Part shown: piece by piece, positions 31,249 through 35,816 of the stretch | How the letters are laid out: the number at the start of each line of letters is the position of its first letter | How positions within the stretch are numbered: position 1 is the stretch's first letter | Origin: a virus | Reading direction: 5' to 3' (one strand) | IMG/VR virus record: IMGVR_UViG_3300037104_000796 | Location: 32,001 to 96,000 of that record | DNA: 64,000 bases | Translations under genes and position numbers: made by a program | The notes under the pieces: generated by a model | Database searches by the model: none | Seen by the model: only the letters and a program-made list of their open reading frames with translations | Told to the model about the DNA's origin: nothing

Positions 31249-31713
31249 CTATATATTCAGGCAATTGTTAGGCCGTTTCCCTTTCATTCTTTCACTTTTC
31301 TTTTTATTTTGTTGCGTTGTATGTTTTCTTCCTACATTTTTTCCAATCATTGATTTACTTCGTTTTTTTCTTGTTTCTTCAGATATAGGTGTATTTGAAA
31401 GTAATTCTCGAGCATATACGTAATCTCTTGAAGAAATTTTATCTCTTCCATGTTTATCAAATGTCATTCTATGAAATGCCAAAGTAATTTTTCTATTTCC
31501 TTTATAAATATAAGTCAATAATTTATGACATACATAGTGTTCTCGAGCAGTTAATAAAATTCGATTAAATCGGTCATTACTTCCGCCTAAGCATTTCGCA
31601 ACAATATGATGATCTTCATAATAAACATACTTTGGATCGTTTTTCTTAAAACGCATTCTATTTTGAGATTTTGCGTTACTTATTATGTTATTATAGATTT
31701 TTTGATGATTCAT
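31249..31713 (-). CDS. HNH homing endonuclease (start MNHQ at 31713)
   Basis: EDHHIVAKCLGG...LLTAREHYVCH; ETRKKRSKSMIGK NUMOD3-like. Confidence 0.85.
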   Translation of the reverse strand: MNHQKIYNNIISNAKSQNRMRFKKNDPKYVYYEDHHIVAKCLGGSNDRFNRILLTAREHYVCHKLLTYIYKGNRKITLAFHRMTFDKHGRDKISSRDYVYARELLSNTPISEETRKKRSKSMIGKNVGRKHTTQQNKKKSERMKGKRPNNCLNI

Positions 31714-31734
31714 TTGTGCATGCATTACTTCAAT

Positions 31735-31764
31735 AAAAAAGCTGAGCATGTGCTCAGCTTTTAA
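31735..31764 (-). terminator. Intrinsic terminator downstream of tmRNA
   Basis: AAAAGCTGAGCA-TG-TGCTCAGCTTTT palindrome with a T tract on the minus strand. Confidence 0.8.
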
Positions 31765-32025
31765 AAGCCGGACATTGAGGCCGCCGGCAGTTTCCTGTAA
31801 ATGAGTGCTTCTTAAGCAGCCATTTTCATTTCATAAACTGTATTGTCGTTTATTTACGTATCAAGTACTATCTTTACTACTTCCTTATCGCTGTCAAATC
31901 TAAGTCATCCCCTAAAAACCGTACTAACGCGACGGGTTAGCGCAATAAAAGTGATAGTGGAGATGCCGGTTTCCGCCACCGGGTCCAAACGATAGTCTCT
32001 CGCAAATAGCTTTTTGCAAAGCGCG
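31765..32025 (-). ncRNA. ssrA: Circularly permuted (two-piece) tmRNA gene
   Basis: Minus-strand order: T-arm CCGGT-GGCGGAA-ACCGG plus acceptor 3' strand CATCTCC-A (31965-31958); then a 45-nt intervening segment; then the 5' strand GGGGATG (G1=31912, G3.U70 Ala identity) with ACTTAGATTTGAC; then the tag frame AATAAAC-GAC...GCT GCT TAA (31847-31812). Outer boundaries are approximate. Confidence 0.88.
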
Positions 32026-32028
32026 TCC

Positions 32029-32769
32029 TTAATATCTTTTTCCTATTTTAATTATAGGTTCATTTCTTTTAAAAATCAATTCTTCTATTTGTTCAAAATT
32101 GATATAATCATTCTCATCGACTCGAATTAAACGATAATCATTTTTTAAACACCATTCTTCAAGTAATTTGTCTTTTACTTGTTTTAGTTCCAATTGTCCA
32201 TTTATGTCTTTAAAATGCCAAATTCCATCATATTCAAAACAAACTTTTAAAATGTCTGAATACAAATCTCTTGTTAAACTTACATGATTAAATATCAGCC
32301 TTCCTCCTGTTTTCCAATGATATTGAGGATAAGTGATTTTAAAATAATCTACTATATTTCGTTCTGTTTTTGATGAGAATTTTTTATTTTTGCTTTGTTT
32401 TTCAAAATACGAATCATTATCATATTTTCCTTCTTTCCAGGCCTTTGCAACAGATTTGCTTGTTTGCGCTTTACTTTCTTCTGTTCTTTTTCGTAGTTTA
32501 TTAGCGCAAGAAATGCTACAAATTTGCTTTGTTATAGGCTTATTTTCTCGGTGTCTTACAGTAAATTCTTTTCCACAAATTACACAATGAAGTTTTTCTT
32601 TAATGATTTTTCCTCCATTTAAATTTTCTTCTCTTTCGATAAATTTGGCTCGAGAAAGTTCTTTGGATTTCAAATTTTTATATGCGTATCCTAAATGTTT
32701 CCATCTGTGATGATTTGCTTTTGCTTGAAAAGTTTCAAATTCAATTCCACATTCTTCACATTTATACAT
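32029..32769 (-). CDS. Putative homing endonuclease: C2H2/CxxC zinc fingers plus Vsr/DUF559-like nuclease domain
   Basis: CEECG..F......HHRWKH; SKTE, CFEYDGIWHF, KDKLL...YRLIRV. Confidence 0.75.
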   Translation of the reverse strand: MYKCEECGIEFETFQAKANHHRWKHLGYAYKNLKSKELSRAKFIEREENLNGGKIIKEKLHCVICGKEFTVRHRENKPITKQICSISCANKLRKRTEESKAQTSKSVAKAWKEGKYDNDSYFEKQSKNKKFSSKTERNIVDYFKITYPQYHWKTGGRLIFNHVSLTRDLYSDILKVCFEYDGIWHFKDINGQLELKQVKDKLLEEWCLKNDYRLIRVDENDYINFEQIEELIFKRNEPIIKIGKRY

Positions 32770-35093: not shown

Positions 35094-35816
35094 TTATATA
35101 TTTAACGTGACATTTAGTTTTGTTTTATTGTCTACATTATAATGTTGTCCTCTTTTTGATTTAATCATATTTTCAATAAACATTTTATATTTTGAAGTTC
35201 CTTCAATTTCTCCATATTTTTCAATAAATCCTTGTAATCTTGATTTATCTTTTCTTTCTTTTAATTTACTTATATACGTATTATATAAAATTAATCCTTC
35301 AGTTTCTCCATATCTTTTTGAAAAATGATATAAATTATTTTTTCCTTCTGTACTGTGTTTGATTTTATCTATCGTTTTTTGTGTTACTATTTTTCCAATA
35401 TGCGAAATACTTAAATTGTGTTTATGATCTTCAGAAAAACTTTGTCCTTTTTTTCCATTACTTATTTTTTTTCGTGTTTCTGTTGACATTTGTAAAGACG
35501 ATAATAATTCTTTTGCGTATGCATAATCTCTAGATGAAACTATATTTCCATATCTTTTATTAAATGACATATAGAAGAATGCTTGAGCTATTTTTCTATT
35601 TTCTTTATAAATGTATGTTAGTAATTTATGACAAACAAAATGTTCTCTAGCAGTTAATAAAACTTTATTATTTTGATCTTCATTTACTCCAATACATTTA
35701 GGTAAAATATGATGATTTTCATAATAAATATAGCCTATTTGATTTTTCTTTATTCTAATTCTATTTTCAAATTTTGCTTTTTGAATTATAGTTTCGTAAA
35801 CTTTTTGATGATTCAT
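35094..35816 (-). CDS. HNH homing endonuclease
   Basis: ENHHILPKCIG...LLTAREHFVCH; ETRKKISNGKKG. Confidence 0.85.
   Translation of the reverse strand: MNHQKVYETIIQKAKFENRIRIKKNQIGYIYYENHHILPKCIGVNEDQNNKVLLTAREHFVCHKLLTYIYKENRKIAQAFFYMSFNKRYGNIVSSRDYAYAKELLSSLQMSTETRKKISNGKKGQSFSEDHKHNLSISHIGKIVTQKTIDKIKHSTEGKNNLYHFSKRYGETEGLILYNTYISKLKERKDKSRLQGFIEKYGEIEGTSKYKMFIENMIKSKRGQHYNVDNKTKLNVTLNI

Follow-up and report, generated by a model that had tools for sequence, protein, structure and literature searches.

The stretch of viral DNA considered here, referred to as the window, spans 64,000 nt (positions 32,001-96,000 of IMG/VR record IMGVR_UViG_3300037104_000796), and all coordinates below are in window numbering. 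On its minus strand, at 32022-31735, lies a gene for a circularly permuted transfer-messenger RNA (tmRNA), approximately 290 nt in length from leader to terminator, in which the 3' half of the tRNA-like domain is followed by a spacer and then by the 5' half. This is the order of the Rfam family RF04321 (tmRNA_permuted), the sole family to exceed its gathering threshold in a scan of the window (score 64.7 bits, threshold 47; E = 3.4e-10 over the 64 kb; model positions 1-213). An earlier note had read the locus as a phage-encoded, permuted two-piece tmRNA, and this reading is supported by the Rfam match, by ARAGORN under a relaxed threshold and by comparative covariation. The tools were not unanimous. 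Under default settings ARAGORN made no call, but with the -ps option it reported exactly one gene in the 162-kb contig, namely the permuted tmRNA, whose two halves and tag, (A)DNTVYEMKMAA, were those that the note had proposed. Likewise, RF04321 passed its threshold but none of the alpha, beta or cyano models of permuted tmRNAs did so. The locus is certainly a real tmRNA. Taken as a whole, it is best explained as a functional, circularly permuted ssrA gene that belongs to a compact megaphage family with a permutation of its own, a reading to which we would assign, from the sequences compared here, a probability of roughly 80%.

Every element listed in the note was found on the minus strand where it had been placed, to the base (Table 1). 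The 3' CCA is not encoded, as had been claimed: a lone C follows the discriminator (A-C-U-A). The spacer, predicted to be removed, has no second copy elsewhere in the genome. Between P2 and the resume codon, no convincing pairing could be defined by eye for pseudoknot PK1, and the ring of pseudoknots PK2-PK4 is missing from the gene. The proposed 3' terminator was recovered by folding, which gives clear hairpins and U-runs, although a consensus terminator scan flagged nothing under its own criteria. The promoter candidate sits inside the inserted HNH gene, at its 3' end, and in the alignment of relatives a TATAAT/TATTAT box and then a GAUAUUGAG-like motif are kept 5' of the RNA.

Table 1. Elements of the permuted tmRNA gene and adjacent genes. 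Percentages refer to paired cells in the alignment of homologues.
Feature	Positions	Strand	Basis or remark
Promoter candidate TTGATT-17-TATAAT, sigma-70-like	32051-32079	-	consensus scan, 10/12 matches; putative function
Leader hairpin GCUUU-GCAA-AAAGC, GNRA-type tetraloop, 5' end of acceptor piece	32009-32022	-	hairpin here in 21/21 homologues
P2b 5' strand UUUGC	32006-32002	-	P2b 94% paired
P2a 5' strand UAUCGUU	31994-31988	-	covariation; P2a 90% paired
T-arm CCGGU-GGCGGAA-ACCGG	31982-31966	-	stem paired in 21/21 at 5 positions (100%); 11 extra pair types
Acceptor 3' strand CAUCUCC	31965-31959	-	pairs with GGGGAUG
Discriminator A (A73)	31958	-	ends acceptor-piece body, 32006-31958
Spacer, 45 nt, predicted removed; starts with C, holds CUAAC/GUUAG hairpin	31957-31913	-	hypervariable in homologues
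Acceptor 5' strand GGGGAUG with G3.U70	31912-31906	-	7/7 positions paired in 21/21 (100%); four pair types at 5:68
D-loop analogue ACUUAGAUUUGAC, unpaired	31905-31893	-	ARAGORN, alignment
P2a 3' strand AGCGAUA	31892-31886	-	pairs with UAUCGUU
P2b 3' strand GUAAA	31877-31873	-	followed by linker to 31848 ending in resume context UAAAC (AAUAAAC)
Tag frame GAC AAU ACA GUU UAU GAA AUG AAA AUG GCU GCU UAA, 12 codons	31847-31812	-	encodes (A)DNTVYEMKMAA
P5-like hairpin UGCUU-AAG-AAGCA, stop codon in and next to loop	31806-31818	-	94% paired; 6 extra pair types
3' tail of coding piece, begins with conserved single-stranded CUCAUUUACAGGAAAC	31735-31805	-	folding and alignment
Terminal hairpin GCCGG...CCGGC + U4, conserved loop motif GCCUCA	31788-31763	-	folding
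Second strong terminator hairpin, 11 bp + U6, this phage only	31758-31735	-	folding
HNH homing-endonuclease gene between portal module and tmRNA	32029-32769	-	PHROG HNH endonuclease families
Homing-endonuclease gene directly 3' of tmRNA	31249-31749	-	phrog_655, E = 7e-38
Third free-standing homing-endonuclease gene	35094-35816	-	

Relatives of the phage were retrieved from IMG/VR by their portal protein, at 86% down to 38% portal identity, and 21 unique permuted homologues, all downstream of the portal gene, were aligned. To score pairing, the spacer was replaced by a fixed linker and five helices were considered. Across all five, 95.5% of cells were paired, against a mean of 76.6% and a maximum of 80.3% in shuffled alignments; the observed pairing of each single helix was reached by none of 1000 shuffles, and sliding the partner columns caused pairing to collapse. 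Stem covariation with compensatory changes is thus present in the homologous loci. Three of the helices, P1, P2a and P2b, pair between the two predicted pieces, and the alanine identity elements G3.U70 and A73 are invariant. The tag frame is retained at 11-13 codons in all 21 copies, with UAAAC before the resume codon in 18 and an MAA end in 16. A leader hairpin is likewise universal, with differing stems capped by GNRA, UNCG or other loops, as is a terminal hairpin with its U-run. The loop of this terminal hairpin (window 31767-31788 and 20 relatives) bears a conserved GCC(U/A)NA-type motif above a covarying stem, which suggests a tertiary or protein contact. Spacer length varies from 16 to 186 nt and its sequence is unconserved save for modules among close relatives; such hypervariability is expected of a discarded segment. 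The spacer of one relative, L137, contains a module in common with this phage (GCUAAYCYGUCGCGUUAGUAC) and another in common with L135; close relatives thus differ by the gain and loss of modules.

In view of these patterns, a decaying or non-canonical tRNA-like element with no part in trans-translation is scarcely credible here, be it an SmpB-titrating decoy, like the RNA of mycobacteriophage DS6A that comprises the tRNA-like domain only, or the leftover of an integration site. Such an element would suit the rejection of the locus by ARAGORN at default settings, a T-loop devoid of U54 and U55, the missing PK2-PK4 ring, the want of an encoded SmpB in both the 162-kb contig and a complete related genome, and the selfish endonuclease genes on both flanks. 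However, conservation across 21 diverged copies extends to the resume context, to the tag frame with its xAA ending and to the stop codon enclosed in a covarying hairpin, and G3.U70 and A73 do not vary; the gene is also complete rather than a fragment, with a promoter-like site and a terminator of its own. In Alphaproteobacteria the same T-loop core is functional, and two-piece tmRNAs that have few pseudoknots are known to be active (PMC3968760).

Where relatives of at least approximately 63% portal identity offered enough downstream sequence, an ARAGORN-detectable permuted tmRNA was present 3' of the portal gene, with two exceptions. One, L194, has a diverged copy that was found by profile alone. 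The other, L188 (IMGVR_UViG_3300032053_000163; 76% portal identity), yielded no tmRNA within 4 kb 3' of the portal, which we read as tmRNA loss or relocation. Gene order in the clade is o234, portal, tmRNA, o152, o205, o90, and eight of ten relatives tested passed the RF04321 gathering score. In the portal tree, all carriers of the permuted gene are monophyletic (support of 95 in the Shimodaira-Hasegawa-like approximate likelihood ratio test, SH-aLRT); the sister group consists of the Lak megaphages and a further genome, G002, with a support of 100 for both groups together, and one-piece genes lie on the deeper branches. Near-complete outgroup genomes contained a one-piece gene in four cases (G004-G007) and none in two (G002 and G003), while the permuted form occurred in none of them. 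For one carrier, G001 (IMGVR_UViG_3300027899_000001), the genome is complete at 405 kb and bears terminal repeats, and the loci L141 and L142 are stretches of it; G001 encodes approximately 38 tRNAs, yet neither SmpB, a one-piece tmRNA nor a PolyA_pol-family enzyme was found in it. Two further searches added little to this sample. A T-arm pattern scan of IMG/VR for relatives returned ordinary alpha-type genes alone, which served as a comparison set, and a scan for the motif following the tag returned mostly unrelated high-GC contigs along with one new member, L176. No match was obtained by blastn of the locus, or megablast of the surrounding 20 kb, against 50,697 GenBank phage records, and no deposited phage genome belongs to the permuted-tmRNA clade. 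On these comparisons, the genes form an undescribed, very compact family of two-piece tmRNAs confined to one clade of Lak-related phages with genomes of approximately 400 kb.

The family fits none of the models of the recognized permuted lineages. At the present locus, the alpha_tmRNA model (RF01849) came just short of its gathering score of 50, with 49.8 bits that it owes largely to the T-arm; the match extends over model positions 40-274 of 355, and the terminal pairing regions of the model (positions 1-39 and 275-355) are unmatched. In the relatives, the best lineage-specific score was instead that of beta_tmRNA (RF01850), at 31-44 bits against a gathering score of 84 and with the beta-specific helices flagged as non-pairing, whereas here the alpha match outranked the beta one. 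No match to cyano_tmRNA (RF01851) was listed for the locus and four relatives in a sensitive scan whose output suppresses lower-scoring overlaps of the same clan. The clade is thus split between two lineage models while remaining below threshold on both, and on these scores is a member of neither.

The alpha-like T-loop deserves particular attention in this regard. The earlier note had likened the GGCGGAA loop to a GGCRGUA-type loop of the alphaproteobacterial form, and that form is correctly described: the RF01849 consensus is GGCgGUA, and GGCGGUA occurs in 68 of 69 alpha-type genes in viral contigs, together with a D-loop UAGG. The atypical loop is indeed present here, but it is not a trait of the family. 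Only this phage and L135 (2/21) carry GGCGGAA, and both combine it with a G-to-A change in the D-loop analogue (UGG to UAG). The other 19 have a canonical or near-canonical loop of the UUCGA type, four of them with 6-nt loops, and a D-loop GG. These include L141, from the complete genome, whose loop is an intermediate, GUCGGAU, altered at positions 54 and 58 while the D-loop retains GG. The two loops interact, and their interaction matters for SmpB binding (PMC3968760). With the alpha-like loop confined to two members, canonical loops elsewhere and one intermediate, convergence is likelier than alphaproteobacterial inheritance, and the GGCGGAA loop with its matching D-loop change most likely reflects a late, stepwise convergence within this sublineage. 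The spacer of this phage offers a further indication, as it is clearly homologous to the L137 spacer although the T-loop of L137 is UUCGAU; since T-arm, spacer and 5' half are contiguous in a permuted gene, the block was not imported whole. The portal tree places this phage as sister to L137, but its tRNA-like core is the one found in L135, a discord pointing to exchange between co-circulating phages or to homoplasy.

An alternative, which we consider very unlikely, is that an alpha-type two-piece tmRNA was acquired from an alphaproteobacterium or one of its phages, such as a pelagimyophage, and that its tag was adapted later. Beyond the restriction of the loop to 2 of 21 members, the intermediate in L141 and the spacer homology with L137, the 3' end speaks against such a transfer: CCA is encoded in all 69 alpha-type genes (as ACCA) but in only one of the 21 clade members, the other 20 having just C after the discriminator. 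The tags are, moreover, of Bacteroidota type, the relatives score best on the beta rather than the alpha model, and the terminal regions of RF01849 find no counterpart at the locus. What such a donor would account for is the near-threshold RF01849 score, with its alignment of leader hairpin, CUAU, T-arm and tag end, the T-arm of which 26 of 29 nt are identical to those of an alpha-type viral gene, and the pairing of a GGCGG core with a D-loop UAG as in the alpha type. Alpha-type two-piece tmRNAs are also common in viral contigs and known in phages (PMC9004378). The note had left open whether the gene arose by independent permutation or by horizontal acquisition; the evidence favours an origin inside the megaphage lineage and disfavours a donor in the Alphaproteobacteria.

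When 185,579 species genomes (one per species) were searched for the tag pattern GENxY..MAA-stop, matches came almost solely from Bacteroidota (Cytophagales, Chitinophagales, Flavobacteriales and others). All 89 matches typed by ARAGORN were one-piece genes, with tags GENNYAMAA, GENTYAMAA and GENSYAMAA, which clade tags such as GENSYALQMAA resemble save for two additional residues. The discriminator is followed by C and no CCA in 72 of these 89 genes, as it is in the tRNA genes of G001. A permuted tmRNA was found in none of 151 Bacteroidota genomes sampled. Two of these genomes, G102 and G106, gave full-length, sub-threshold RF04321 matches of approximately 40 bits (L398 and L399), which proved to be ordinary one-piece genes; matches of this kind call for caution in the automated typing of permuted forms. 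Among outgroup megaphages, one-piece tags also end in xMAA (GNNAEMRMAA in LR756500, DDEI[DE]FRMAA in Lak). Profiles of the coding and acceptor pieces, searched with nhmmer, matched one-piece genes of Bacteroidota and megaphages better than alpha-type genes, though the signal beyond the tRNA-like domain and the tag was too weak, and the sets too biased, for a decision. Three likenesses to Bacteroidota one-piece genes can accordingly be read from the alignments, in the tags, the unencoded CCA and the D-loop, and the hosts of the clade are probably Bacteroidota, judging from these tags and from the hosts proposed for related phages (PMC7162821).

The same likenesses bear upon a second source from outside, a single capture by the clade ancestor from a beta, cyano or unsampled bacterial permuted lineage. 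Phage capture of a host ssrA gene is documented (PMC9004378), the best lineage-specific score of the relatives is to the beta model at 31-44 bits, and in a recent tmRNA database 'permuted (beta)' entries turn up sporadically across many phyla, 23 of them in Bacteroidota (PMC11915505, Table S2). We nevertheless judge this unlikely, as those scores fall far under the beta gathering score of 84 with the diagnostic helices non-pairing, the sensitive scans (lower same-clan overlaps suppressed) list no cyano match, and tags, CCA and the UGG D-loop agree with one-piece genes of Bacteroidota, where the permuted form was seen in 0 of 151 genomes. Sister and outgroup megaphages, in turn, possess one-piece genes whose tags likewise end in xMAA.

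For the family itself, the likeliest origin is a separate permutation of a one-piece tmRNA of Bacteroidota or megaphage type, probably, though not provably, independent of the known ones. A more specific proposal counts this event, leaving mitochondria out of account, as the fourth independent permutation among tmRNAs and as the first whose inferred place of origin is a virus lineage or the Bacteroidota gene pool. It would have resulted in a minimal two-piece RNA devoid of PK2-PK4, whose elbow later changed stepwise from UUCGA through GUCGG to GGCGG and, in the D-loop, from UGG to UAG, reaching the non-canonical solution of Alphaproteobacteria. We regard this fuller proposal as evenly balanced between acceptance and rejection.

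Several considerations limit the reading as a whole. Firstly, the leader hairpin and the CUAU following it in RF01849 also match the locus, and the family may share old ancestry with the alpha form. Secondly, the Bacteroidota comparison set was picked by its tag pattern, which biases the comparisons of both tags and profiles; with the tag excluded, nhmmer aligns approximately 25 nt, and the origin signal is weak outside the universally conserved tRNA-like domain. Bacteroidota-like tags could, moreover, reflect adaptation to host proteases rather than descent. Thirdly, no tandem-duplicate intermediate was found. Finally, the beta and cyano lineages were compared by means of their Rfam models rather than gene sequences, the portal tree derives from a quick search with SH-aLRT as its only support, and the host phylum is drawn from relatives and tags rather than from CRISPR spacers.

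A plausible mode of action can be assembled from the anatomy of the gene and established tmRNA biology (PMC3968760). From the sigma-70-like promoter at 32079-32051, a single transcript would run from approximately 32044 to 31735, ending at the terminators and comprising, in order, the leader hairpin, the 3' tRNA-like half, the disposable spacer, the 5' half, the tag frame and the terminator. Cleavage by RNase P immediately before G31912 would create the 5' end of the coding piece, while a tRNA 3'-maturation activity would trim after A31958 or C31957. A CCA-adding enzyme would then complete the end of the acceptor piece. A candidate is a 401-aa class II nucleotidyltransferase encoded outside the window (G000:C1, approximately 137.1-138.3 kb; L158:754-1959, minus strand), which has CCA tRNA nucleotidyltransferase as its closest match (E = 2.8e-42, with a score under the equivalog cut-off); as G001 has no enzyme of the CCA-adding type, that of the host must suffice there. 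The two pieces would be held together by the 7-bp acceptor stem, P2a and P2b, and G3.U70 and A73 would allow charging by the alanyl-tRNA synthetase of the host. The RNA would be brought to stalled ribosomes by SmpB and EF-Tu, likewise from the host, and translation would resume there at GAC and append (A)DNTVYEMKMAA. An SmpB gene, for which the earlier note had suggested a search, is absent from the 162-kb contig and from the complete 405-kb relative, so that the tmRNA would depend on the SmpB of its host. The phage may plausibly keep the gene so that ribosomes stay free while mRNAs are being cut over a long infection, or so that tagged proteins are steered by a tag unlike that of the host.

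Two-piece tmRNA is a textbook case of RNA gene permutation. The earlier note had called unusual a compact permuted tmRNA in a phage whose other features look non-alphaproteobacterial. The compact clade family is undescribed, but phage two-piece tmRNAs as such are already known from marine and aquatic myophages including Methylophilales phage Melnitz, pelagimyophages and cyanophages (PMC9004378). The megaphage genes resemble these in being viral, permuted ssrA genes unaccompanied by SmpB that presumably support translation during infection. The myophage genes, however, are found by ARAGORN and cluster with the alpha or cyano lineage of the wider group to which their host belongs, whereas the megaphage family fits no lineage model, is carried by Lak-related phages of approximately 400 kb and has presumed hosts that use one-piece tmRNA. 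A further difference is that Rfam scans of the megaphage locus and window gave no match to a glutamine riboswitch. To the alpha two-piece tmRNA of the Caulobacter type (RF01849), the similarities are the order of acceptor piece, spacer and coding piece, a leader hairpin ahead of P2, a small number of pseudoknots and a GGCGG T-loop core with a D-loop UAG; the phage gene differs in being much shorter (approximately 290 nt), in its unencoded CCA, in its Bacteroidota-type tag and in its Lak-related megaphage carrier.

Huge phages are also known to carry tmRNAs (PMC7162821). The one-piece genes of Lak and other Mahaphages belong to the same phage lineage, with Lak as the sister group, and share xMAA tags, an unencoded CCA and a UAGU​U motif upstream of the P2 strand, but they have the standard order, a length of approximately 390-470 nt and a pseudoknot region. 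The Lak gene also adjoins the portal gene, although upstream of it, where the permuted gene lies downstream; portal alone is detectably conserved in synteny with Lak, and the move from one side to the other thus cannot be reconstructed. Lak phages recode TAG, in contrast to the standard code of this phage's clade. Their portal genes (L003 in Lak-A2, L004 in Lak-B5) contain in-frame TAG codons, seven of them in Lak-A2, and translate only with TAG as sense. The one-piece tmRNA of Bacteroidota (RF00023; tags GENNYAMAA and GENTYAMAA) shares with the clade a tag that starts GEN-x-Y and ends MAA, the UGG D-loop, the canonical T-loop of most clade members and a 3' end of discriminator and C with no CCA, while differing in its standard order, its four-pseudoknot size, tags shorter by two residues and a chromosomal location alongside SmpB.

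In the literature, we found no account of permuted tmRNAs from Lak-related megaphages and none of a permuted lineage with a link to Bacteroidota. The only classes that a 2025 tmRNA database has for permuted genes are alpha, beta and cyano; for Bacteroidota genomes it lists 48 sporadic permuted genes (PMC11915505), and these might be contigs of such phages. Default ARAGORN and the older lineage models miss the present gene, and its like are thus probably under-annotated in megaphages or mis-assigned in surveys based on metagenome-assembled genomes. The lineage is informative in being confined to giant phages, nested among one-piece relatives and associated with presumed one-piece hosts. As an independent case, it would help to show why and by what route permutation occurs, and what minimal size a working tmRNA can have. 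Recurrence of the GGCGG T-loop with its D-loop change points to a second stable solution for the SmpB-binding elbow of tmRNA and, if the convergence is true, provides a natural replay experiment for the interface of T-loop, D-loop and SmpB.

The wider genome is represented by a 162-kb IMG/VR viral contig of 31% GC, approximately 40% complete according to CheckV. Its portal protein is closest, at approximately 40% identity, to those of the 462-kb huge phage LR756500 and the Prevotella Lak megaphages, which belong to the 'Mahaphage' clade predicted to infect Bacteroidetes (PMC7162821). The contig uses the standard genetic code, open reading frames of at least 100 aa under table 11 covering 92.8% of it, and stop-codon recoding was rejected on this coverage as a reason for carrying a tmRNA. 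Neither a tRNA gene, SmpB (PF01668) nor a one-piece tmRNA was found in its 162 kb. The tRNA genes of G001 lie in a single island of approximately 38 at 313-361 kb, most of them ending in discriminator and C, then AAA, with CCA unencoded; the island of this phage is thus probably in the missing part of its genome.

Both immediate neighbours of the tmRNA gene are inserted homing-endonuclease genes. The HNH gene is not at this site in most relatives, although L145 has a homologue at the same site, and the phrog_655 endonuclease gene has no tmRNA adjacency in relatives. Along with the third such gene (Table 1), these free-standing genes are lineage-specific insertions around the portal and tmRNA genes.

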